A stretch of DNA of 64,000 nucleotides from Desulfosudaceae bacterium (GTDB taxonomy: Bacteria; Desulfobacterota; Desulfobacteria; Desulfobacterales; Desulfosudaceae), in assembly GCA_963674745.2 (NCBI GenBank), contig CAXXDV010000003.1, forward strand, positions 1,088,001 through 1,152,000, read 5' to 3'. Below are positions 26,585 through 47,180 of this stretch, one piece after another (position 1 is the first letter of the stretch; each line of letters begins with the position of its first letter). The position numbers and the translations under genes were made by a program. The notes under the pieces were generated by a model. The model searched no databases and was not told the origin of the DNA. It saw nothing but the letters and a program-made list of their open reading frames with translations.

Positions 26585-26805
26585 AGCAGCCCCTCTGATC
26601 GTTACAAGTCGATTGTTGAGGATATGACTGAAGTTTGCAATGGTTTTCTTTCAAGGCCGATATTCTGCCTTCGTCATTCCGGCCTCGAAAGCCGGGATTC
26701 AGATCTGCCGGACATAAACACACGCCTGAACGTGTTTTAAGAAAACCGGCCAGAATTCCGAGGCAAACCTAATCACCTAATCACATAACCACCTCCAACA
26801 AATTC

Positions 26806-27476
26806 GTAGGGGCACCCCCCCCGTGGGTGCCCTTGACCGGGCGGCCACAGGGGGCCGCCCCTACATTGTTCATGAACGCTCTCCGCGGATTTCTCGACGC
26901 CCATCCCGGCCCGTAGGGGCAACCCCCCGTGGTTGCCCTTCATCAGGGCAGGCACAGGGGCCTGCCCCTACATTGTTCATGAACGATTTCCACGGTATTC
27001 ATGAACATTCACCACGGCCCGTAGGGGCAACCCCCCGTGGTTGCCCTTCACCGGGCAGACACAGGGGCCTGCCCCTACATTGTTCATGAACGATTTCCAC
27101 GGTATTCATGAACATTCGCCACGGCCCGTAGGGGCAACCCCCCGTGGTTGCCCTTCATCAGGGCAGGCACAGGGGCCTGCCCCTACATTGTTCATGAACG
27201 ATTTCCACGGTATTCATGAACATTCGCCCCGGCCCGTAGGGGCAACCCCCCGTGGTTGCCCTTCATCAGGGCAGGCACAGGGGCCTGCCCCTACATTGTT
27301 CATGAACGATTTCCACGGTATTCATGAACATTCACCACGGCCCGTAGGGGCAACCCCCCGTGGTTGCCCATCATCAGGGCGGCCACAGGGGCCTGCCCCT
27401 ACATTGTTCATGAACGATTTCCACGGTATTCATGAACATTCACCACGGCCCGTAGGGGCAACCACCCGTGGTTGCC
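26806..27476. repeat. Tandem array of REP doublets, 107-108-bp period (6 units plus a partial)
   Basis: GTAG starts at 26806, 26913, 27021, 27128, 27236, 27344 and 27452; same linker family as the 19.7 kb array. Confidence 0.95.
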
Positions 27477-33579: not shown

Positions 33580-33610
33580 ATCCCGTGGTTGACTGCGTGT
33601 TCCCCGGCCC

Positions 33611-34101
33611 GTAGGGGCAACCCCCCGTGGTTGCCCACCACCAGGGCAGTCACAGGGGCCTGCCCCTACATTGTCCCTGAACGTTTCCCCCGTGACCCGT
33701 AGGGGCAACCCCCCCGTGGTTGCCCTCCACCAGGGCAGGCACAGGGGCCTGCCCCTACATCGTTCCTGAACGTTTCCCCCGGCCCGTAGGGGCAACCCCC
33801 CGTGGTTGCCCACCACCAGGGCAGTCACAGGGGCCTGCCCCTACATCGTTCCTGAACGTTTCCCCCGGCCCGTAGGGGCAACCCCCCGTGGTTGCCCATC
33901 ACCCGTGCAGGCACAGGGGCCTGCCCCTACATCGTCCCTGAACGTTTCCCCCGACCCGTAGGGGCAACCCCCCGTGGTTGCCCATCATCAGGGCAGGCAC
34001 GGGGGCCTGCCCCTACATTGTCCCTGAACGTTTCCCCCGACCCGTAGGGGCAACCCCCCGTGGTTGCCCACCACCAAGGCAGTCACAGGGGCCTGCCCCT
34101 C
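33611..34101. repeat. Tandem array of REP doublets, 86-88-bp period (6 units)
   Basis: GTAG starts at 33611, 33699, 33786, 33872, 33958 and 34044; linker at(c/t)gt(c/t)cctgaacgtttccccc. Shorter arrays of this type at 30412, 35400 and 42224. Confidence 0.95.
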
Positions 34102-34120
34102 ATATGGATGCCCCCAAATA

Positions 34121-35334: not shown

Positions 35335-35886
35335 CATGTTGGGCCTGCCCCTATAACCCCAATCCCGAACCTAAAACCTCAAACCTCGAACCCCGACCCG
35401 TAGGGGCAACCCCCCGTGGTTGCCCTTCACCTGGGCAGGCACAGGGGCCTGCCCCTACATCGTCCCTGAACGTTTCCCCCGACCCGTAGGGGCAACCCCC
35501 CGTGGTTGCCCTTCATCAGGGCAGGCACAGGGGCCTGCCCCTACATCGTCCCTGAACGTTTCCCCCGGCCCGTAGGGGCAACCCCCCGTGGTTGCCCATC
35601 ATCAGAGCAGGCACAGGGGCCTGCCCCTACAACTCAAACCCCGAACCCCGAACCCACCTACCTCGTCATGCCGGACCCCGATCCGGCATCCAGATCGGCT
35701 GGCCATAAATATTCAACTGAACGTGATCCAAGAAAACCAGCCAAAAGACCCCGCCCCCCTTAACCACTTAATCACATAATCACATAATCACTTAACCACA
35801 TAATCACATTGACAATTTTACCCCGACAGTACAAAAATGAATATACCGGCCATTTTATCCGTTTTATCTTTTGAAAGAGAACGACA

Positions 35887-36405: not shown

Positions 36406-36620
36406 AAAACTTTACCGCTAACCATCTCGAACCCCGAACCCCGAACCTTGAACCCTGAACCCTGAACCCTGAACCCACCTGACCACTTTGAAAGTCATCA
36501 TGAATATGGTATAGAAAACAACAGCCTATCTAAAGGGCAGGGGTTTTGTTATAAATGACCAGGTTCGCGGCACAACGCCCCAACCGGTCGCCGAATCCAA
36601 ACGGCTGGAAGCCAAGCCGT

Positions 36621-37010
36621 ACCGCTTTGCTTGAATTTTACTGGCGTTTGGGCGCGGATATCGCGGAAAAGCAGAAAAACGCCACCTGGGGCAGCGGCTT
36701 TCTCAAGCAGCTCAGCAAAGACCTGATGGCAGAATTCCCTGATATGAAAGGGTTTTCCCGGAGAAATCTGGAAATCATCAGGAGATGGTATCTCTTTTAT
36801 TCTCAGGGGGATGCAAAAGCGAAGCAGCCTGCTTCGCTTTTGCGGCAACAGCCTGTTGCCAAATTGTTTCAAATTCCCTGGTGGCACAATGTCGTCATTA
36901 TTCAAAAATGCAGCACCGTAGAACAAGCCCTGTTTTATGTCCAAAAAACCGTCGAGTACAACTGGTCGCGCAGTGTGCTGATCCATCAAAAGGAAAAATA
37001 CGTAAGGTAA
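36621..37010 (+). pseudogene. DUF1016 (YhcG) N-terminal fragment
   Basis: Near-identical to 46236-46580 outside a variable block; lacks RBS, start and the nuclease domain. Confidence 0.85.
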
Positions 37011-37054
37011 GAAGTTACAGATGAGGTATTGCGGGAATCCCTAAAGACCTTTTG

Positions 37055-37423
37055 CTAAAGGTCTTTTTTCATCCTGGTTATTGTATTTATCAAATCGGGC
37101 ATGTGGTCCTTGCAGATGGAAAAAACGATTTCGGCATTCAGGTCAAAATAATGGTGGCTGATAATGTCGCGCATTCCCATGACGCCTTTCCAGTCCATTT
37201 CCGGATATCGACAAAGAAGTTGTCCGTTTGAGACTTTATCAAGGTTCTTTACGCTTTCGCCGATGGCGATCAGCATCATGCAAATGGCGTCCAGTTTATC
37301 AATACCCGATTCTGTTGAGAGGAAATCATCCGAGGAATTAATCCCCTCGAATCTTCGCGTAATGCGGTTTGAGGCAGTAATAATCTGATTGAGAATTTCT
37401 TCAACAAGGTCTCTATCAAACAT
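37055..37423 (-). CDS. HEPN (DUF86/HepT-like) RNase toxin
   Basis: IGES, WKGVMGMRDIISHHYF (Rx4H); overlaps the MNT gene. Confidence 0.88.
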   Translation of the reverse strand: MFDRDLVEEILNQIITASNRITRRFEGINSSDDFLSTESGIDKLDAICMMLIAIGESVKNLDKVSNGQLLCRYPEMDWKGVMGMRDIISHHYFDLNAEIVFSICKDHMPDLINTITRMKKDL

Positions 37424-37721
37424 ACACGGCCTCTTGATCGATACGCATTTTTAAAAAAGCATTCATTTTTTTGCGGTAATGAACAATATCGACCTTCCTT
37501 TTATATTCATTTTCGAGTTCTTCTTTAATATGGACAAGTGAAAAAAGATCCGGCTTGCTCATTTTGACAACGATATCCACATCGTTAACCTGTGTAGCTT
37601 TCCCTCTTGCCAGAGAGCCAAAGATTCCGATACTGGTAACAAAATAACTGGCCTCAAAGTCGGCCTTTCTTTTCTTCAGAATTTTAAGACCTTCTTCCAG
37701 TGTTAGTGGCTGAACCTGCAT
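37416..37721 (-). CDS. Minimal nucleotidyltransferase (MNT) antitoxin
   Basis: IGIFGSLARG...DVDIVV, KVDIV; start ATG 37721 after GGAG. Confidence 0.87.
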   Translation of the reverse strand: MQVQPLTLEEGLKILKKRKADFEASYFVTSIGIFGSLARGKATQVNDVDIVVKMSKPDLFSLVHIKEELENEYKRKVDIVHYRKKMNAFLKMRIDQEAVYV

Positions 37722-37924
37722 CAATATTATCTCCAAGAAAGAATAACTAAATGATATTTATGTGATATTTGATTGTTTACCAAATTATTACAATGATAAC
37801 ATTGCTGAATATAAGTGCAATAGAAATCGACCAGCGCTCACAGGCGGTTGCCCTTACACATATTTGAGAACAGCCTCGAACCCCAAGCCGGTCGCCGAAT
37901 CCAGACCGCTGGAAGCCGTAATCA

Positions 37925-38080
37925 AAAACATAGAATTTCTCGGGATATGGGAGCATCTGAACAACCCCGTGTTTAAACCCGTCGAATTCGACGGGTTTAG
38001 AATCCAGGCCGGATTAAACAGCTTTACGCTCACACCCAAACAGTGGATAGAAAAAACCGGGGCCATAGGGATTATTTCCA
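37925..38080 (+). pseudogene. KilA-N domain fragment
   Basis: IEFLGIWEHLNNPVFKPVEFDGFRIQAGLNSFTLTPKQWIEKTGAIGIIS; near-identical to 41670-41817. Confidence 0.8.
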
Positions 38081-38243
38081 ATTTGCGAAACAGCCTGTTT
38101 CGCAATTACCCCAAAATGCGCAACGGTCCGCTTCACAATTAACAAAACAGATCGCTTCTCAAATCTATCGACGATTCCAAGAAATCTATCGTTAAACCCC
38201 AACCCCCGAAGCTTAAAACCCTGGCACCACACAAATAAACATA

Positions 38244-38550
38244 CTATCCTTGTTGATGCGTTTGAACCAGGTTGATGATGAATGCAATTAATTTTTCTGC
38301 TTTGGGTATCCAGGGCAATACCTGAGACTCATTAAAGCTGACAAAATCGATATAATCTCCTTCCTGCCGTCTTTCAAACAAGTCGTTATAGATTTGGGCC
38401 AAGTCCCTGGGGATTTTTACGGTTTTAACATATTGCTGATTAAAAAGGCTGCGTATGCCGGAATGCTTGGAAGAAGATTGATTGTCCAGCTTCCAGCGTT
38501 TCTTCAGCTCGTGCCAGGCGATGGGAAATCAGGTCCTGGTTCCATTCCAT
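38244..38550 (-). pseudogene. HEPN-domain gene with internal deletion/frameshift (not in ORF track)
   Basis: ATG overlaps the MNT stop (TGATG). Reads MEWNQDLISHRLARAEETLEA, then shifts frame to SSKHSGIRSLFNQQYVK...LFERRQEGDY...QQG-stop. The usual central NRLYYA-type helix is absent. Confidence 0.75.
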
Positions 38551-38864
38551 CAAATACGGATTCCTTCGGCTTCTACCTGCTGAAAAAATGGCATACCCTG
38601 GTAGCGTTCACTTTGCCATTCCCGGTGAGACCTGACAATAGCGGAGATAACCGTTCCGGCCTCCCATTCAATCTCATAGAGACGGTGACGAATGCGATCA
38701 GTGCGTTCATCATTCACAATACCATCTACCAGAACCAGCAGATCCCAGTCCGAATCCGGTCCGGCATCTCCCCGAGATCGGGAGCCGTAAAGAATAATCT
38801 CTGCCGTCGGTTCAACTTCATGAACTGCCTGCCTGATTTGAAGCAATAATCGGTCCTTATCCAT
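38550..38864 (-). CDS. Minimal nucleotidyltransferase (MNT)
   Basis: IILYGSRSRGDAGPDSDWDLLVL; ends EGIRI. Confidence 0.88.
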   Translation of the reverse strand: MDKDRLLLQIRQAVHEVEPTAEIILYGSRSRGDAGPDSDWDLLVLVDGIVNDERTDRIRHRLYEIEWEAGTVISAIVRSHREWQSERYQGMPFFQQVEAEGIRI

Positions 38865-39158
38865 GGGTTTATACCCCTTTCTTCTTCATCTCGGTCAAGA
38901 CTGCCAGCGGCGGGCGCGATCCGGAATCCAGCCCCTCCAGGCCACAAACACACCCCTGAACAATCTTCAAGAAGGCAAAACACCCACCCCGGCCCGTAGG
39001 GGCAGGGCGTGCCGTGCCCAATATCCCCGTGGTCGCCCTCCATCGGGCAGGTACAGGGGCCTGCCCCTACATCGTCCCTGAACGTTTCCCCCGGCCCGTA
39101 GGGGCAACCCCCCGTGGTTGCCCTTGTTTTACCTGCATGATTTCCCGTTTGCTTATCC

Positions 39159-39659
39159 TTAAATCTCGTAACAATCGAGGATCTGGCCGAAGTAGAGCAC
39201 ATGGTAGTCTTTGTCCGGGTAAATCGACCGGTATTCATCTACCAGGTAGGTCGGGTCCATTTCATTTTTAAATACGATTTTGCATTCGAAATGAATGCCG
39301 GGCACATTGATAACAGGAGAAACCACTTTCTGGCTTTTACGGGTCGCCAGTTTACATTTTTTGTACTTGTTTACATCTTTACCTGATTTTGTTCCGCAGC
39401 ATAAAATCTTATCTTTCATGTTTTTCAGGGGGACCGAAACAGTAAAATCTTCAGCTTGTTCCAAAATGGAGAAGGTGTGCCTTGATTTACGCACGGCAAT
39501 CATCAATATCGGCTTTTGCCAGACAACACCGATCGTCGCCCAGCCTATGATCGTTGTGTTCATCTCATCGTCCGATTTAACCGTCAGAAAAGCCCCTTCG
39601 GCCATCTGTTTCATCACCTTTTCCGCAACCGCCATGTAATCTACCTGTTTAATTGACAC
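39159..39659 (-). CDS. Flavin reductase-like FMN-binding protein
   Basis: NTTIIGW, AVRKSRHT, CGTKSGKDVNK, FECK, YHVLYFGQI; RBS AGGAGG. Confidence 0.85.
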   Translation of the reverse strand: MSIKQVDYMAVAEKVMKQMAEGAFLTVKSDDEMNTTIIGWATIGVVWQKPILMIAVRKSRHTFSILEQAEDFTVSVPLKNMKDKILCCGTKSGKDVNKYKKCKLATRKSQKVVSPVINVPGIHFECKIVFKNEMDPTYLVDEYRSIYPDKDYHVLYFGQILDCYEI

Positions 39660-39995
39660 CTGGGCCTCCTGTGATTGTTTTTATTCTGTTTTTCCCTATC
39701 AGCCGGACTTTTGCTTTTTTTACCTGTTTATTCTCCATTAATACCAATCACGCCCATTTTCTGTCAATATTACCAGGGCCACCATAATCACCTGATCCCC
39801 CTGAACCCCAAACCTTAAACCCTGAACCCTGAACCCTGAACCTTCGAACCCCGAACCGCCTGACCACTTTAAAAATCATCATTAATATGGTAAAGAAGAC
39901 AACAGCCTATCTAAAGGCCCAGGCTACGCCCACACCGCTCGCCGAATCCAAACGGCAGGAAGCCGTATACAAAAAAAACATGGAGGTTTTGGGTT

Positions 39996-41546
39996 ATGGA
40001 CAATAAGTCGACGCCATTACGAATATTTATCAGTTCAGTACAAAAAGAGCTTGAACCCGAGCGGCTGGCTCTATTTTCGTTGTTGACTACCGATCCGGCG
40101 TTAAAGGATCACGTGGAGCCCGTCCTCTTTGAAATACTTCCTCCGCCACCCCGTCCAATGAAAAAGCCATATCTGAAGGCACTCAAGACCTGCCAGGCCT
40201 ATGTACTAATGATTGATCGGGAGTACGCCCCGGAGGGCACTGCCAAGTCACCCACACATGAAGAGTATGAGCTTGCCTGCTTGATGGGCATCCCGGCCCT
40301 GGCCATGATCAAGGGGAGACACGACACCGGCAGAGATCTTCGAACACAAGCGTTCTTTAAAACAATCCGGAAAGACGGTTTCACCTACAAACGGTTCATC
40401 GACCGGATCGACCTGAAAAAAGAAGTAGCAAAATGGCTGATCCAAGTGCTGAAAGATGAGTTCGGCATTGAGCCGCAACCAGGCCAGGAAGAAAGCAGTG
40501 AAGATACCATCGAAGCCGCATCCGCCTTTGAAACCATGCAGCAGGATGGCCTTTCATTAAGCGATCTGGATTTACCGGCTGCACGGCAATTGTATGCGGA
40601 ATTGACAGGCCAATCCGCTAAATCAGCAACCATGACGAAAATGTCCTCTGTCTTTCGGGTGCGCGGTTTGCTCTGGCGTAACGGCGACACCGGTGCTCTG
40701 CAACCCACCGCTGCAGGCGTCGTGTTTCTCGGCCAAAACCCCTGGCTGGCATATGCCCAATGCCAGGTGCTGGCGGATGCCTATTGGGATACGAAAGTGA
40801 CCTCAAAACCAAAGTCCCAGGCGAAGTTCACCGGCCCCATTGCATTCATAATCGAGGAACTCCTCGATTTCGTCCACAGCAACACGGCGCACCCGACCCG
40901 GGTTGTGGGAATAAACAATATTGAGCTTGACGAGTATCCGCGCCTTGCCGTGCGCGAGGCACTGGTCAATGCCTTCGCACACCGTAATTATGAGGATACC
41001 TCACGCAAAATCCGGCTTGAGATTTTTCGGGATCGTCTGGTTGTATCCAGCCCCGGCTATCCCCCCAGGCCGCTTACACTGGCCAAGCTCAGACGAGGCA
41101 AGTACGAATCGTGCAGACGAAATCCGGTAATTGCCGAATGCCTTGCCTCTCTGGATATGATGGAACAGCGAGGAACCGGGTTTGAAAGAATCCGTGCCGC
41201 CATGCAGGACCACGGATTGAGCGCGCACAAACTGGAACAGCGCGATGGTTATTTTAAGGTCATTCTGCCCGGACCGGACGGGGACTTTGACCGGCTCCGG
41301 ACGCCAGCCGATGCCCGGGGCCTGATCTCGCTGTCCATAGAGTCCCGGCTGAACGAACGGCAGAAACAAATCATGGTGCAGGTGCAGACCGAAGGCAGCG
41401 TGACGAGCGGGTGGTGCAAAAAGGTGTTCGGCGTGGCATATCAGACCGTGTATCGGGACTTGAAGGGGTTGCTGGAGGCAGGACTTGTTGAGCAGACGGG
41501 TTCGGGACGAAGCACGCGGTACATCATTAAATTAGCCGATGATTAA
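39996..41546 (+). CDS. DUF4062 + RecG-C-terminal-like ATP-binding domain + wHTH protein
   Basis: RIFISSVQKELEPER, SPTHEEY (DUF4062); AVREALVNAFAHRNY, SSPG, RNPVIA, EQRGTG; C-terminal TVYRDLKGL...GSGRSTRY. Confidence 0.85.
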   Translation: MDNKSTPLRIFISSVQKELEPERLALFSLLTTDPALKDHVEPVLFEILPPPPRPMKKPYLKALKTCQAYVLMIDREYAPEGTAKSPTHEEYELACLMGIPALAMIKGRHDTGRDLRTQAFFKTIRKDGFTYKRFIDRIDLKKEVAKWLIQVLKDEFGIEPQPGQEESSEDTIEAASAFETMQQDGLSLSDLDLPAARQLYAELTGQSAKSATMTKMSSVFRVRGLLWRNGDTGALQPTAAGVVFLGQNPWLAYAQCQVLADAYWDTKVTSKPKSQAKFTGPIAFIIEELLDFVHSNTAHPTRVVGINNIELDEYPRLAVREALVNAFAHRNYEDTSRKIRLEIFRDRLVVSSPGYPPRPLTLAKLRRGKYESCRRNPVIAECLASLDMMEQRGTGFERIRAAMQDHGLSAHKLEQRDGYFKVILPGPDGDFDRLRTPADARGLISLSIESRLNERQKQIMVQVQTEGSVTSGWCKKVFGVAYQTVYRDLKGLLEAGLVEQTGSGRSTRYIIKLADD

Positions 41547-41627
41547 TCTATCACTAATCTATCACCAAAACGCGAAAATCTATCACATCCAAATCGGGGG
41601 ACAGTATCTGTCCCCCGATTTGGAACC

Positions 41628-42030
41628 GATGACCTTATCCGCAACTGGTTGCGTATTCGCAATACGCTGGAATTTCTCGGGATACGGGAGCATCTGAACA
41701 ACCCCGTGTTTAAACCCGTCGAATTCGACGGGTTTAGAATCCAGGCCGGATTAAACAGCTTTACGCTCACACCCAAACAGTGGATAGAAAAAACCGGGGC
41801 CATAGGGATTGTTTCCTAAGCCGGACGCTATGGTGGAACGTATGCCCATAAGGATATTGCCTTTGAATTTGCGTCCTGGGTATCGGTGGAGTTCAAGCTA
41901 TATCTGATAAAGGAATCCCAGCGTCTTAAGGAATACGAGCGGAAAACGCTGGGCTGGGACATCCGCCGCAATCTTGCAAAAATCAATTATCGTATCCACA
42001 CTGACGCCATTCAACAACATCTCATTCCGC
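41628..42030 (+). pseudogene. KilA-N domain gene remnant with frameshift
   Basis: IRNWLRIRNTLEFLG...GIVS-stop, then +1 frame PGRYGGTYAHKDIAFEFASW...LAKINYRIHTDAIQQHLIP; no start codon. Confidence 0.85.
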
Positions 42031-42178
42031 AAACCCATGGGCGTTTCGGAATATGAACTGGTCCGGTCCCTGCCCGATGAATTGAAATCCGCTCTGCCGA
42101 CAATTGAGCAGATCGAAGCTGAATTTGACCAGAGCGGGGATAGCATTTGATCTGGTTAATCGCGGCTCAATAAACCCG
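42031..42178 (+). pseudogene. DUF1016 C-terminal fragment plus 3' flank
   Basis: KPMGVSEYELVRSLPDELKSALPTIEQIEAEFDQSGDSI-stop; near-identical to 47061-47208. Confidence 0.88.
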
Positions 42179-42569
42179 GGAACAACCCTGAAACCCCGAA
42201 CCTCAAACCTCAAACCTCGAACCCGTAGGGGCAACCCCCCGTGGTTGCCCGGAACCGTGCAGGCACGGCAGCCTGCCCCTACATCGTCCCTGAACGCTTC
42301 CCCCGGCCCGTAGGGGCAACCCCCCGTGGTTGCCCTTCATCAGGGCGGCCACAGGGGGCCGCCCCTACAACGCAATCCCGAACCCCAAACCCACCTTCTT
42401 CGTCACCCCGGACCCCGATCCGGTATCCAGATCTCCCGGCCACAAACACCCACCTGAACGTGTTTTAAGAAAGCCAGTCAAAATACCCCGCTCCCCTTAA
42501 CCACATAACCACTTAACCCCTTAACCACATAATCACATAACCACTTAATCACTTTAAAACCTTCATCCG

Positions 42570-43130
42570 CTATAGCGGTATGTCTTCATCATCATCCTCT
42601 TCCCGTATTTCCGCCAATGTCTCTTCCGCCTGCCGGGCCACATCCACATCATCATCCCCGGCCAGTCTTTCCAGGAATTCTTCAGGCGTGTCCGGGTTTT
42701 CCGCAAGGGCAAACCGCACAGACGGGTCCGACCGGCTGACCAGCCTTTGGCACAGCCACGATTTTTCACAGATCTCGTTTTCATCTGTAAAATCATCCAT
42801 ATTGTTTGCCACCGCGATTAAAATGGCACGGTCATCGGTGTCCATATAGGTCTCCAGATCCCGTCGCGTCATGTGCCTTCTGGCCCGCCTTGAATCCAAA
42901 ACAGCCCGCATCACCTCCGGAGAATCATTTTCAATCAGCATCCGCAGGGTCAATCGGGACAGGTGTTCCTTGTCAACCAGACAGACCAGGATTTCACTGT
43001 ATTCGGACCTGGCCAATTCATGATAAACATCACTGTATTCCGCCTTGTCTTCCAGCATAAAGGCAATTTCCTCCAGCCCCTTGTGCCCCAGCACCACTTC
43101 AACATCGTTAATAATCAATTTGGCATCCAT
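42570..43130 (-). CDS. Acidic alpha-helical repeat (HEAT/LRV-like) protein
   Basis: DPSVRFALAENPDTPEEFLERLAGDDDVDVARQA; co-oriented downstream of the AAA ATPase; RBS GGAGG. Confidence 0.7.
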   Translation of the reverse strand: MDAKLIINDVEVVLGHKGLEEIAFMLEDKAEYSDVYHELARSEYSEILVCLVDKEHLSRLTLRMLIENDSPEVMRAVLDSRRARRHMTRRDLETYMDTDDRAILIAVANNMDDFTDENEICEKSWLCQRLVSRSDPSVRFALAENPDTPEEFLERLAGDDDVDVARQAEETLAEIREEDDDEDIPL

Positions 43131-43238
43131 TTTTTACCCTCCATTTCGTAGTTATCTCGGACATTTCTCGAAATTGCTTTAATCGTAGGGGCAACCCCCT
43201 GTGGTTGCCCTTCACCGGGCAGGCACGGGGGCCTGCCC

Positions 43239-45545
43239 CTACAAAAACCGCGACATTTGCGAACGACCCCGAACCCCGAACCCGATTCTGCTCTTCCCCG
43301 CCTGCTTTTCCTTTATCCCCGCCTCCTGTTCCAAGGCCGCCACCAGCATGTCGGCCGTTACACTGCCCTTGGGGTAAAAGGCATACCGGTCACGAACGAT
43401 CTTAAAATCCCCGGGCGCAAGACATTGCAGCCGGTCAAGCACACGGGCCGTTTGTTCATCCACCCCCCCGGGCACAACAGACCCCAACATGCGCTCGTAA
43501 AACAACCGATTGCCCTCGGGTGTCAAAAAATCAAAGCCGATCTTGTGGTTAAACCGTCGGATCGCGGCCGGGTCCACGCCGGTCAGCCGGTTGGTGGTGG
43601 CAATCAACATCCCGTTGAAGCGTTCCATGGCCGTCAGCAGCTCTGCGGTGTGGCTGACTTCCCATGACCGGCTCGCCGCCGCCCGGGGAAAGAGCAGGGC
43701 GTCAACCTCGTCCAGCACCAGCACCGCCCCTTCATGGGCCGCCCGTTCAAAGGCTTCCCGGATATACCGCTCGGTCATGCCCACATACGGGTCCAGCAGG
43801 TCGCTTAACCGCCTTACCAGCAGTTCCCGGCTCAAGTGCCGGGCCAGAAACCGGGCAAACTCGCTTTTGCCCGTGCCGGGCGGACCATGAAGCAGCAGGT
43901 TGAACCCGTAACGGCTCTGTTCGTAACCGGACACCTTCTGTAAATACTGGTCAAACTGCTCCGCCTGAAACAGCACTTCATCAATGTCGGCCGAAATATT
44001 TAACCCCTCCAGTGAATAACAGGCCTCCAGCCGATCCACCGCGGTCTTTTTCTCCCCGTCATTGATCAACGCCTGGTGGGCTTCCACGCTCCGCTGCACC
44101 GCCTTTAGCATGTCTGTGCGGTTCATTTGCCCGGTTTCCCTGGCCTTTTTCACGGCCAAATCGATCACCCCGGCATTGGTCTGAAACGCCTGGGCCAGCA
44201 TCCGCAGGTCATCCTGCCTGAAAAACCGCTTGCAGCGATGCCGGCGTACGATATTCTCCCACAACCGTTCCCGCTGCTGCCGGTTAAAGGGCTTGAAATG
44301 AATGCTGAAGGCAATCCGCCGCAAAACAGAGTCCTCAATACCCCCCATGTGGTTGACGATCCAGATGATGCGCAGCCCGGGCCGCTCCATCAGGTTGTTC
44401 AGCCAGCCCTTGTCCTGGGTCTCCCCCCTTCGCCACCAGGCATTCTCCGTATTCAGCACATTGTCGGCCTCGTCCATAATGAACACAGCCCCCTTGTCCC
44501 GGTTCATGCTGCTGACACAGGCATTCAAGATCAGCCGCCGCTGCTTGCTTTCATTGTCCTCAGAATTGTGCTGGACAATTTCATAAACCGGGTCGTCCAG
44601 GTACCCGGCCAGCCCCCTGGCAAAACTGGTTTTGCCAGTGCCCGGCGGACCGTATAACAGGATATGGGTGGCCGAAGCCGTTTTCTGCCCGAGCAGACTC
44701 AGCACATGGGCCACATCCCCGACAGGAATAAAATAGTCTTCCAGGTCCGGACCGGATGCCCCCTTTACCCGCTTCAGGTTTTTTTCTTCCAAGATGTTGG
44801 TATTGCCTTTTTCCAGAAAACCTTTCATCTCATCGCTTAGTTGAAACCCATTACTGCCAAAACGACTGAAACCGGATTCAACCAAACCGGCCGGGAGCAA
44901 GGTCTTCGTTAAGGCCGCGTTGATATCGCTCCGGGTGACAGCCATAATCGTGGCCAAATGACCCAGCCCCTGAAAGCAAAGGGTCTTTAAATGATTGTCA
45001 AAAAATTCTTCAGGCCCGGAAAAGACATCAACCACAAAACAGAACAGGCACAACTCGGTTTCCAGGTCGCTTAAGCTGAAGATTTTCTGAAGATGCAAGA
45101 TGCTTTTTTCAAGGTTGGACACTTTGCCTGCGGCCAGATCACGCCCGGTCTGCCGGATAACCGCCGTCACAAATTCGACAAAATCCCCGGCTATCCACCG
45201 GTTCCCCGCCCGGTTTAAAATCCTGAATATCTCCCTGCCATAACCCGAGATGTTTCCCTGCTCGCACCGCAGCTCATCCATGTCTTCCTGCCGGGTTTCC
45301 ACCGGAACCCGCGAAACCACAAATTCCCCGATTTCAAGCATGCGGTCCCCGGCAACCCAGCAGACAAACTCCACAGCCTCCTGGCTTATCGACAACCGCC
45401 TTTCCATCAGCCGCAATAAATAGTCACAGCACTTTTTCACCACAAACTGCGCGTTTTCATCCCGGGCTTCATGCGGCGAAAACTCGATTGAAAAGCAACC
45501 CTCTTTTTTCATCAATTTCTTCCGTCTCCTCTGAAAACCATTCAT
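43239..45545 (-). CDS. Double-AAA ATPase
   Basis: Two Walker A motifs (GPPGTGKT, GPPGTGKS), Walker B MDEAD and LDEVD, AAIRRF, RIGF near the C-terminus. The stop codon is supplied by the GTAG end of a REP. Confidence 0.9.
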   Translation of the reverse strand: MNGFQRRRKKLMKKEGCFSIEFSPHEARDENAQFVVKKCCDYLLRLMERRLSISQEAVEFVCWVAGDRMLEIGEFVVSRVPVETRQEDMDELRCEQGNISGYGREIFRILNRAGNRWIAGDFVEFVTAVIRQTGRDLAAGKVSNLEKSILHLQKIFSLSDLETELCLFCFVVDVFSGPEEFFDNHLKTLCFQGLGHLATIMAVTRSDINAALTKTLLPAGLVESGFSRFGSNGFQLSDEMKGFLEKGNTNILEEKNLKRVKGASGPDLEDYFIPVGDVAHVLSLLGQKTASATHILLYGPPGTGKTSFARGLAGYLDDPVYEIVQHNSEDNESKQRRLILNACVSSMNRDKGAVFIMDEADNVLNTENAWWRRGETQDKGWLNNLMERPGLRIIWIVNHMGGIEDSVLRRIAFSIHFKPFNRQQRERLWENIVRRHRCKRFFRQDDLRMLAQAFQTNAGVIDLAVKKARETGQMNRTDMLKAVQRSVEAHQALINDGEKKTAVDRLEACYSLEGLNISADIDEVLFQAEQFDQYLQKVSGYEQSRYGFNLLLHGPPGTGKSEFARFLARHLSRELLVRRLSDLLDPYVGMTERYIREAFERAAHEGAVLVLDEVDALLFPRAAASRSWEVSHTAELLTAMERFNGMLIATTNRLTGVDPAAIRRFNHKIGFDFLTPEGNRLFYERMLGSVVPGGVDEQTARVLDRLQCLAPGDFKIVRDRYAFYPKGSVTADMLVAALEQEAGIKEKQAGKSRIGFGVRGRSQMSRFL

Positions 45546-46133
45546 TTTTTTCCTCCCCGTTATGCCGAAGAATTTTCAAGGCAAAAAAACTATCAGCCTG
45601 ATTGTTTGATCTGGGAAGATAATAAAGGAAGGTCGTTCCATAATACGGAACGAAAATTCATTTTGAGGAAAAGCACGTCACCACTCAATTTTCTAACACA
45701 GCCATCCCGGCCAGCTTTGTCCCGAACTCGACCCGGTAATCCGGCATCCAAAAAAAATGTCATATTCCTCGTCATCCTGGCCTTTGCCCCCGTCATGCCG
45801 GACCCCGATCCGGCATCCAGCTCTACCGGCCACAAACGCACACCTGAACAATCTTCAAGAAGGCAGAACTCACGGTAAAACCCCGTTGGGGCAACCCCCC
45901 GTAGTTGCCCTTCACCTGGACAGGCACAGGGCCGCCCCTACACATTTGCGAACGGCACCCGAACCACCTGACCACTTTTAAAATCACCACTAATATGGTA
46001 TAGAAAACAACAGCCTGCCTAAAGGGCAGGGGTTTTGTTATAAATGACCAGGTTGGCGACACAACGCCCACACCGGTCGCCGAATCCAAACGGCAGGAAG
46101 CCGTAAACAAAAAAAACATGGAGGTTTTGGGTT

Positions 46134-47180
46134 ATGGCAAAAGAGATAATCACAACCAAAGAATACCGCGACTGGCTGACCGATATAAAACGGCGCGTCC
46201 GGAGTGCTCAACTGAAAGCGGCCACGGCGGTCAATACAGCTTTGCTGGAATTTTACTGGAGTTTGGGCGCGGATATCGCGGAAAAGCAGAAAAACGCCAC
46301 CTGGGGCAGCGGTTTTCTCAAGCAGCTCAGCAAAGACCTGATGGCAGAATTTCCTGATATGAAAGGGTTTTCCTACAGAAATCTGCGGGCGATCAAACAA
46401 TGGTATCTCTTTTATTCCCAGGATAATACAAAATGGCAACAAGCTGTTGCCATTTTGGCCCGGATCCCATGGGGGCACAATCTGGCGATTATCTCCAAAT
46501 GCAGCACCGTAGAACAAGCCCTGTTTTATGTCCAAAAAACCGTCGAGTCCAACTGGTCGCGCAGTGTGCTGATCCATCAAATCGAAAGTGATTTGTTTGC
46601 CCGCAGCGGCAAAGCAATCACCAATTTTGACCAAACATTACCTGCCCCGCAGTCTGACCTTGCCCGGGAGATTATCAAAGACCCGTACAATTTCGATTTC
46701 CTGACACTCACCGAAGATTACACCGAGCGGGAACTGGAAAAGGGCCTCATTGACCATGTCACCAGGTTTCTGTTGGAGCTTGGCGCGGGTTTTGCCTATG
46801 TGGGAAAACAGGTTCCTCTGCAGGTGGGCGAACGGGAGTTTTTTCTGGATTTGCTGTTCTACCATACCCGGCTGCATTGTTATGCCGTTATTGAGCTGAA
46901 GGTCTCGGAGTTTGAGCCGGAGCATGCGGGTAAACTCAATTTCTACATTAAGGCCGTTGACGAGCAACTGCGTCAAGACGGCGACAATCCGACTATCGGC
47001 ATTCTGCTTTGCAAGGGCAAAGACAAGGTTGTGGCTGAATATGCCCTGAGCGATATCCACAAACCCATGGGCGTTTCGGAATATGAACTGGTACGGTCCC
47101 TGCCCAATGAATTGAAGTCCGCTCTGCCTACAATTGAGCAGATTGAAGCTGAATTTGAGCAGAGCGGGGATAGCATTTGA
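46134..47180 (+). CDS. DUF1016/YhcG PD-(D/E)XK nuclease domain protein
   Basis: YWSLG, WGSGFLKQLSKDL, GFSYRNL, IPWGH, KDPYNFDFL, FLLELGAGF, DLLFYH, IELK, IGILLC. Confidence 0.93.
   Translation: MAKEIITTKEYRDWLTDIKRRVRSAQLKAATAVNTALLEFYWSLGADIAEKQKNATWGSGFLKQLSKDLMAEFPDMKGFSYRNLRAIKQWYLFYSQDNTKWQQAVAILARIPWGHNLAIISKCSTVEQALFYVQKTVESNWSRSVLIHQIESDLFARSGKAITNFDQTLPAPQSDLAREIIKDPYNFDFLTLTEDYTERELEKGLIDHVTRFLLELGAGFAYVGKQVPLQVGEREFFLDLLFYHTRLHCYAVIELKVSEFEPEHAGKLNFYIKAVDEQLRQDGDNPTIGILLCKGKDKVVAEYALSDIHKPMGVSEYELVRSLPNELKSALPTIEQIEAEFEQSGDSI

Follow-up and report, generated by a model that had tools for sequence, protein, structure and literature searches.

A palindrome inside YhcG/DUF1016 genes covaries with an adjacent helix and may be a DNA site of the encoded protein

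Introduction

The described systems closest to the one reported here are the ParB-parS, KorB-OB, SopB-sopC and Noc-NBS pairs of protein and DNA site. A parS site reportedly lies inside the B. subtilis spo0J gene, and plasmid centromeres follow parB and sopB. Here we analyze a palindromic DNA element that lies in frame inside YhcG/DUF1016 genes, two copies of which occur in a 64,000-nucleotide stretch of the genome of a Desulfosudaceae bacterium (assembly GCA_963674745.2, contig CAXXDV010000003.1, positions 1,088,001 to 1,152,000 of the forward strand). We call this whole stretch the window and number positions from its first base. YhcG/DUF1016 has its best structural matches, those of an N-domain model, among the DNA-binding domains of these proteins, has a predicted symmetric dimer, and has palindromes both inside and beside the gene. 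However, it has no CTPase domain, it carries a nuclease tail and it shows no sequence homology to them, and its site lies at one fixed codon of the coding sequence for the predicted DNA-binding domain and is the sole copy in two complete genomes.

Other known systems share single aspects of the element. RAYT genes are accompanied by cognate REP palindromes, which lie outside genes and are scattered in tens to hundreds of copies, and the RAYT fold is HUH. Like these, YhcG/DUF1016 is a nuclease-type gene with palindromes of its own that differ between paralogues; unlike these, its palindrome is in frame inside the gene and is not dispersed, and its fold is PD-(D/E)xK. As in Rickettsia palindromic elements and in-frame MITEs (transposable elements of the miniature inverted-repeat type), palindromic DNA adds in-frame residues of a surface loop to YhcG/DUF1016, with one to four units per gene. 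MITEs are multi-copy and occur in many unrelated genes, whereas the units described here, of 17-39 bp, are confined to the family, keep a fixed position and phase, and do not occur elsewhere in the window genome. In E. coli and phage T4, template-switch mutagenesis at quasi-palindromes perfects imperfect inverted repeats and alters both arms together. It fits the pattern of arm changes that we observe, but it is a mutational process, not a conserved element, and it predicts neither a coupling to one face of a helix nor copies at gene borders. Passages of a report on the mitochondrial genes of Nematomorpha describe numerous perfect inverted repeats in coding sequence, up to 284 bp, with both arms coding (PMC6649704). 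Those repeats are spread across numerous genes within a single genome and lack a cognate protein, in contrast to the one short unit at a homologous codon of YhcG/DUF1016 in bacteria, archaea and viral contigs. We found no description of the palindrome in the literature on YhcG/DUF1016 or on palindromes within coding sequence, and the passages of PMC9881135, PMC4316617 and PMC7967276 that name the gene do not mention one. None of these closest known systems joins a fixed in-frame site with codon-level coupling to an adjacent recognition helix.

YhcG/DUF1016 is among the commonest uncharacterized nuclease families and is present in type I restriction operons, integrative elements, phages and E. 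coli K-12. We find that the palindrome in these genes is real, is conserved at synonymous sites, is fixed in place and codon phase, and is coupled at the DNA level to positions 1, 2, 5, 6 and 9 of the adjacent helix. On balance we favor the view that the protein's own N-terminal head, dimeric and ParB-like, would bind it as a cognate site, with helix and site forming one exchangeable block; the ParB-like fold and the dimer are model predictions. To the wider proposal, that the coding sequence of the DNA-binding domain doubles as its own site and makes up a self-contained specificity cassette of ~120 bp that is swapped between alleles and extends from E. coli to archaea, we give an even chance.

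Results

The initial annotation of the window recorded two DUF1016 copies, and we find that one of these is intact and the other a fragment. Copy B (46134..47180, + strand, as for all DUF1016 parts and palindromic units of the window) is an open reading frame (ORF) of 348 aa in which a Pfam search identifies the DUF1016_N head (PF17761, E 5e-42, profile 1-137) and the YhcG_C PD-(D/E)xK nuclease domain (PF06250, E 6e-67). Among 15 homologues its residue K256 does not vary, and conservation at D239 and E254 is at least 90%. The PADLOC model PDC-S02 matches copy B over residues 1-343 (E 3.9e-157), making defence a candidate label for its role. Copy A is an open frame at 36555..37010 that is similar to copy B over 36620-36990. 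It is a fragment of the N-domain, matching DUF1016_N profile positions 19-131 only (E 2.5e-31), and has no nuclease domain.

In copy B, codons 81-89 (YRNLRAIKQ, 46374..46400) begin the covarying helix, which spans residues 81-95 in the models and is the candidate recognition helix. Downstream lies a perfect palindromic unit of 13+3+13 bases (arm, spacer, arm) at 46429..46457 with its center at 46443, CAAAATGGCAACA-AGC-TGTTGCCATTTTG, which encodes K-W-Q-Q-A-V-A-I-L (short helix 101-108). It is followed by codons 114-121 (GHNLAIIS, 46473..46496), where residues 114, 116, 117 and 121 covary with inner arm bases. The divergent block of copy A (36759..36905, equivalent to codons 81-121) consists of a helix with the sequence RRNLEIIRR, two palindromic units and then PWWHNVVIIQ. 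Unit 1 is 15+1+15 (36813..36843, center 36828; GCAAAAGCGAAGCAG-C-CTGCTTCGCTTTTGC) and encodes AKAKQPASLL. Counting arm positions from the center, it has the arm type C8/G9, the type that accompanies Glu85, and copy A has Glu85. Unit 2 is 8+1+8 (36844..36860, center 36852; GGCAACAG-C-CTGTTGCC), encodes RQQPVA and is homologous to the core of the copy B unit, with 2-3 mismatches in 19.

A fourth unit is an orphan of 11+1+11 at 38083..38105 (center 38094; TTGCGAAACAG-C-CTGTTTCGCAA) that lies at a rearrangement junction. It starts 3 bases past the end of a KilA-N-like match (37933-38079 versus 41670-41816, 98.6%) and is one compensated pair apart from unit 1 of copy A; its 23 bases are also found within the units of two homologues, L033 and L050. 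The orphan is of the Glu85 type, so that it fits the helix of copy A and not that of copy B. All four palindromes are perfect when checked base by base, and the helix sequences quoted earlier for both copies agree with the translations. The CA-N3-TG core attributed to the palindromes is present in all four. The common codon phase also attributed to them holds in the two DUF1016 frames, where the palindrome center is the first base of the codon following Gln; the orphan is outside a DUF1016 frame. Distinct perfect palindromes with arms of at least 11 and a spacer of 0-4 number 96 in the 5.55-Mb genome and 8 in the window, 3 of which are units described here.

We then compared the palindrome across the family, using homologues from 60 relatives of the window genome, 80 representative-genome loci (many phyla, archaea) and 80 viral-contig loci. 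A set of 190 loci was reduced to 169 by removing ORFs <300 aa and exact duplicates, and to 165 by removing those with identical loop DNA. The loop, defined as the region between the helix FSxRNLxxMRxFY and the PWGHN motif, makes up 9% of ORF length. The longest palindrome of the whole ORF was in the loop in 137 of the 160 ORFs having any arm of at least 6, including those of bacteria, archaea and viral contigs. Units were present in 152/165 genes, with one unit in 122 genes, two in 28 and three in 2, and the unit center fell on the first codon base in 177/184 units. As a null we recoded each gene 200 times with synonymous codons drawn from its own usage. The mean longest arm was 9.9 observed versus 4.2 recoded, and the observed arm was never reached in 106/165 genes. 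At p≤0.05 against recoding, 146/165 genes keep the palindrome, showing that palindromy is retained at synonymous positions across the family. A loss of palindromy at such positions, which the initial annotation had named as refuting its proposal, is thus not observed. We inspected the loop in 16 of the 19 genes above this threshold, and most of them have a palindrome that contains one mismatch or a few (9-11 of 12 pairs). Within the unit, conservation is highest for an A at -13, a third codon position, in 139/146 unique units; its partner, T at +13, is present in 140/146. Paralogues of one genome each have a different palindrome at the loop, even with unrelated peptides (EIVVTLSRQ, ILDAVRRE, LHKACGV), and yhcG of E. 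coli K-12 has three in-frame units (15+3+15, 7+1+7 and 6+3+6). Because the arms are longer than in recoded genes and unrelated peptides carry a palindrome, the palindrome is not due to the peptide.

Coupling between helix and palindrome was measured in 150 genes as the mutual information between arm positions 4, 5, 7, 8 and 9 from the center and every protein column. In the null, residues were shuffled only inside clusters built from the protein outside residues 75-125. Besides the arm-encoded residues, the top columns were 85 (z 14.7), 82 (10.2), 86 (7.3), 117 (7.2), 81 (6.4), 121 (5.9), 114 (5.8) and 89 (4.4). Similarly variable columns nearer to the palindrome (92, 93, 95, 96, 99 and 118) had z values of -0.6 to 1.5. 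Mock sites made from neighboring variable codons gave z≤4.1 for columns 81, 82, 85 and 86, which indicates that mere linkage of a recombining block is insufficient for the signal; for column 89 they gave 4.3. The helix residues are therefore informative about the palindrome, as the initial annotation had proposed, with residues 81, 82, 85, 86 and 89 giving z values of 4-15. These residues are helix positions 1, 2, 5, 6 and 9 after the conserved G-F-S turn and lie on one face of the helix. The same positions are the classical base-contacting positions of the recognition helix of a helix-turn-helix (HTH).

Arg82 occurs with G at arm position 7 in 90/90 genes, and where residue 82 is Ser, Thr, Ala or Gln, G is at position 7 in 3/51. 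Other pairings are Glu85 with C8 (5/5), Trp85 with T8/C9 (16/16) and Tyr86 with A5 (88/95). We also calculated independent contrasts on a tree built without the block. Among 17 independent pairs that differ in Arg82, position 7 changed concordantly in 14.2 and oppositely in 0, with no change in the other 2.8 (median p 1.2e-4), and control contrasts at neighboring columns were not significant. Synonymous codons follow the same residue. Val at codon -3 is GTG in 50/50 genes with Arg82 and GTC in 19/19 genes without it, and Ser at codon +2 is TCG (5) with Arg82 and AGC (4) or TCC (1) without it. The residues at codon +2 that accompany non-Arg82 (Gly, Asp, Arg and Ser) are chemically dissimilar. 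Since synonymous codons track Arg82, the coupling is to the base pair and not to the encoded residue.

Pairing within the arms bears on whether the element acts as DNA or as RNA. Arm positions 7-13 yield 1050 cells, of which 878 are Watson-Crick, 17 are G:T, 37 are A:C and 118 are other mismatches. G:T is scarcer than A:C, so the G:U tolerance expected of an RNA stem is absent. The innermost pair is complementary in 78/150 genes, which is the purine-pyrimidine chance level, suggesting that the center acts as a 3-base loop or as an uncontacted center. In most units the outer arms are AATT...AATT without a T-run, and a terminator or attenuator was rejected on this ground as a general explanation; no search of Rfam was made. 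Three further candidates were considered and rejected. A programmed frameshift at the A-run before the hairpin does not agree with the runs, which are not in a slippery frame and are absent from many homologues. The likeness to a sigma-54 promoter (TGGCA...TTGC) has a spacing that is off by 2 bases. A diversity-generating retroelement, suggested by the variable stretch beside a hairpin, was dropped because variation is not limited to one short stretch; no search for a reverse transcriptase was made.

The two copies in the window are, as described initially, near-identical except for one block. The flanks match at 131/135 positions on the left and 84/86 on the right (97-98% identity), whereas the block (alignment columns 220-365, copy B codons 81-121) has 84 matches, 38 mismatches and 24 gap columns. 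The block is coextensive with the span of positions in which helix and palindrome covary. Copy B has Arg82 and Arg85 with G7/G8/T9, and copy A has Arg82 and Glu85 with G7/C8/G9 in unit 1, both in agreement with the family tables. For the flanks of both copies the nearest relatives are L031 and L039; for the blocks they are L041, L039 and L031 in copy A, and L002 and L036 in copy B. This suggests that the intact gene, copy B, may have received a foreign block, a signal that is weak at segment lengths of 43-51 residues. In a group of viral-contig loci (L147-L165) the block is likewise more diverged than the flanks, with, for example, flanks 94% and block 72% identical, while in short-loop pairs the block is not more diverged than the flanks. 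The match between block and covarying span fits the idea that helix and site form one module. A strict rule of one site per allele is not supported, as copy A has two unlike units. The alternative that hairpins drive diversification receives limited support, from the diverged block of the window pair and of one viral-contig group, and none from the short-loop pairs.

Public reads contain the stretch in two runs, in both cases as contigs that break at window repeats. A 151-base metatranscriptome contig (run X22, from another habitat) matches copy B from 46429, the first base of the palindrome, onward, and its preceding 31 bases are unlike the window. A contig of another sample links 36866 to 46431 via 35 other letters. 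Neither contig informs on function or expression, and the reads hold no informative joints at the palindromes.

In each of the 150 loci we looked for a second place matching the locus's own core of 19 bases, at no more than 2 mismatches, and found one in 27 loci. In 18 of these it is a tandem repeat inside the loop and in 9 it is elsewhere. Six of the latter are 5-40 bases past the stop codon (L046, L142, L144, L173, L178 and L182), two are about 50 bases upstream of the start (L169 and L170) and one is further inside the gene (L180). The extra copies share the unit alone, between flanks that are not related, and some of them stand in inverted orientation. The E. coli K-12 chromosome (4.64 Mb) has 6 occurrences of CAGAC-N3-GTCTG, versus 3 of a reversed control. 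Three of these sites are inside yhcG, one is 22 bases past the yhcG stop, one is 22 bases past the gltD stop and one is elsewhere. The gltD-side site is 7.5 kb upstream of yhcG, and the five sites near yhcG have GAATT outer arms in common. The two extragenic sites past the gltD and yhcG stops (3360638-3360650 and 3368976-3368988) bracket an 8.3-kb gltF-yhcADEF-yhcG segment. Dispersed target sites were rejected as an explanation, as the window units have no further copies in their own 5.55-Mb genome, the 6-kb flanks of 58 viral loci contain no copies more distant than the gene borders, and the unit is unique in two complete genomes.

No solved structure was identified as a relative of the protein by sequence, the best match (Prp8, E 0.045) not being meaningful. 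The predicted N-domain is all-helical (predicted local distance difference test, pLDDT, 86.8), and the palindrome encodes the short helix 101-108, which lies between loops. When this model was aligned to 48,161 chains with VIA-align, the best match was the ParB DNA-binding domain on parS (Z 8.2, root-mean-square deviation (rmsd) 5.0, 105 aligned), with further matches to Spo0J (Z 7.3, rmsd 2.7, 91 aligned), KorB (6.2/6.1), SopB on DNA (5.3/5.1) and VirB (4.3). Foldseek also ranks ParB and Noc domains at the top, weakly (E 0.4-1). In the sole alignment given, the DUF1016 helix lies on the ParB recognition helix and PWGHN on the ParB motif MGHAR. The ParB likeness of the model is a lead and no proof of homology. 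The N-terminal (CTP-binding) domain of ParB is absent, with Pfam finding only PF17761 and PF06250 in copy B; the protein is therefore not a ParB family member, and it may work like the DNA-binding part of ParB. For the nuclease domain, the model is similar to NucS/EndoMS, Hjc, MGME1 and Cas4-type nucleases. Homodimer prediction gave a score of 0.62 versus 0.00 for the best control, with runs sharing at least 69% of contacts and a pLDDT of at least 77. The mark set by the dimer tool is reached by 20/30 solved pairs and 1/23 single chains. The prediction expresses model confidence and is no measure of binding. The predicted interface comprises residues 10-76, and helix 81-95 is not listed in it.

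Discussion

In the reading that we favor, the protein would be a symmetric dimer with a helical, ParB/KorB-like head that contains an HTH, followed by a PD-(D/E)xK nuclease domain. Helix 81-95, after the G-F-S turn, would be the recognition helix and would read one half-site of the ~27-bp palindrome. The site would lie within the gene itself, in the codons for the short helix and loop that separate the recognition helix from the helix after it (PWGHN). With the reading residues and the site within ~120 bp, the two would be inherited and exchanged between alleles as one block. The most likely purpose would be an operator that travels with the gene, where bound protein lowers or stops transcription before the nuclease domain is made. 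Such an operator would suit a toxic promoterless gene that lands in foreign operons, and passages of PMC9881135 place DUF1016 genes between type I restriction genes.

Several points weigh against this interpretation. The 150 genes are the best matches to the subfamily of the window, and the analyzed unit of each was picked by arm length. Among the residue-base pairs tested, Arg82-G7 alone is significant in the independent contrasts; Glu/Thr85-C8 stands at 5 to 0 with p 0.06, and neither Tyr86-A5 nor Lys/Arg85-G reaches significance. The covarying half-site bases (positions 4-9) place the half-site centers about 14 bp apart, which is not one helical turn. Multi-unit genes such as copy A hold unlike unit types, so there is no strict pairing of one helix with one site. 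Two other complete genomes carry the unit just once, inside the gene, and any role must consequently be exerted on the gene itself or on DNA that comes in. According to the alignment tool, a Z of 8 or less may reflect just a common helical arrangement. A profile-profile comparison with hhalign against ParB HTH domains gives no support (probability 0.45%), and a Pfam HTH_ParB match is found in 1/68 N-domains and is faint (E 0.068). The autoregulation step is one that we purely infer.

The palindrome could alternatively be a quasi-palindrome that is functionless and, once a hairpin-forming stretch has arisen in a tolerant loop, self-perpetuating, with replication strand switching copying one arm onto the other and ordinary residue-residue co-evolution producing the link to the helix. 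We consider this unlikely. Such a process would readily yield arms that are perfect and change in pairs even at an amino-acid cost, the tandem duplication of units in 18/150 loci, non-coding copies that are longer perfect palindromes still, and an innermost pair at chance level (78/150), as for a hairpin loop. What it leaves unexplained is that Arg82 tracks position 7 through the GTG/GTC codons of Val and the Ser codon families, that covariation falls on a single helix face (81, 82, 85, 86 and 89) and not on nearer variable columns, and that extra copies occur solely at the borders of the cognate gene. Perfect palindromes are also otherwise rare in the genome, at 96 in 5.55 Mb. If the element is only a self-copying structure, it would still be a striking case of a mutational process shaping a conserved protein motif. 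We find it hardly credible that the palindrome is a by-product of the conserved peptide motif V-Q-Q-x-V-A-Q, or due to chance. The first codon positions of Q...V and Q...A do pair automatically (C with G) and give a short quasi-palindrome for free, but the recoded genes, with a mean arm of 4.2, fall short of the observed 9.9, subfamilies with very different peptides keep the palindrome, and non-coding copies exist.

Two other explanations give the palindrome a function of a different kind. The nuclease could cleave the palindrome cognate to it, possibly in cruciform state, within its own allele or that of a rival, and patch repair would then spread and diversify the block in a homing-like manner. 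This agrees with a divergent block that has the palindrome roughly in its middle (copy B, -69 to +53 bases) between flanks of 97-98% identity, with a copy B block whose nearest relatives (L002 and L036) differ from those of the flanks (L031 and L039), with the same pattern in L147-L165 (94% flanks, 72% block), and with an orphan unit at a rearrangement junction. The model of the C-domain is like the structure-specific nucleases NucS/EndoMS, Hjc and MGME1. However, a gene that cuts itself requires a protection step and nothing that we observed provides one, short-loop pairs have no excess of block divergence, the 43-51-residue signals are phylogenetically weak and the reads have no informative joints at the palindromes, and we regard this explanation as quite unlikely. 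A hairpin in the mRNA, serving as a pause site, as an RNase site or as a protein-bound structure that represses its own translation, appears improbable to us. The stem leaves a loop of 3 with the innermost pair unconstrained, and the internal unit, the copies ~50 bases upstream and those 5-40 bases past the stop could all be in the transcript of the gene. The external copies of L170 and L173 are even terminator-like, with a stem and then a T-run. Yet G:U is not tolerated (G:T 17 versus A:C 37 of 1050 cells), most units are AATT...AATT without a T-run and hence not terminators, and the predicted head resembles domains that bind double-stranded DNA.

If the palindrome is the cognate site of the head, it would provide a first mechanistic handle on the family, and one open to direct testing in E. 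coli K-12, where yhcG and its surroundings contain five related sites. The nuclease would have a portable operator in its own gene, and the stretch would be one of the rare cases of DNA under a double constraint, from its codons and from its service as cognate site of the domain that it partly encodes. Specificity would be legible from sequence, with helix and site travelling together, which would aid the prediction of cross-reacting alleles. Genomes could be read directly for a natural protein-DNA recognition code, in which, for instance, an Arg in helix position 2 goes with a G in half-site position 7. The difference that paralogues retain in one short block, next to a homogenized remainder, would also be explained.

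Additional features of the window

The surroundings of the two copies form a variable island with HepT/MNT toxin-antitoxin pairs, a DUF4143 ATPase, a DUF4062-HATPase_c_4 protein, AAA ATPases and many short repeats. A further piece of DUF1016, at about 42026-42146, is a C-terminal remnant (residues about 307-348, the last 35-42 codons) that is joined directly to a KilA-N-like fragment. No DUF1016 sequence was found elsewhere in the whole 5.55-Mb genome (3 contigs). The KilA-N-like pseudogene that leads into the remnant spans 41634-42146, has an in-frame TAA at 41818-41820 and runs into the last codons of DUF1016 at 42026. KilA-N-like and DUF1016, families that are typical guests of restriction operons, are thus fused by rearrangement at 42026. 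Both KilA-N-like fragments contain in frame a perfect 26-base palindrome, TAAACCCGTCGAATTCGACGGGTTTA (13+0+13; 37974-37999 and 41711-41736), that codes for FKPVEFDGF, making KilA-N-like another gene of the DNA-binding type with a coding palindrome. Just upstream of the second fragment, at 41588-41624, is a perfect palindrome of 17+3+17, TCCAAATCGGGGGACAG-TAT-CTGTCCCCCGATTTGGA.

A shared leader of ~40-150 bases (acagcctcgaacc..gccggtcgccgaatcca..) precedes four different genes or fragments, at 36575-36613, 37879-37928, 39926-40007 and 46063-46143. At 39996 and 46134 it extends over the start codon and the initial codons of two proteins that are not related. By its appearance the leader may be a recombination or promoter cassette, a mark of gene exchange within the island. 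Comparison of the window with itself gives 634 repeat pairs. Repeats of 63-108 bases with GTAGGGGC...GCCCCTAC hairpins fill the intergenic space and form tandem arrays at 26805-27476, 33596-34103 and 35391-35631, in addition to many single copies. At 13 kb past the window (genome coordinates C3:1164964-1165310), three long CA-N3-TG palindromes lie within 350 bases, and one of them is in frame in an ORF6N-like gene, where it encodes ELVTNCDRL.

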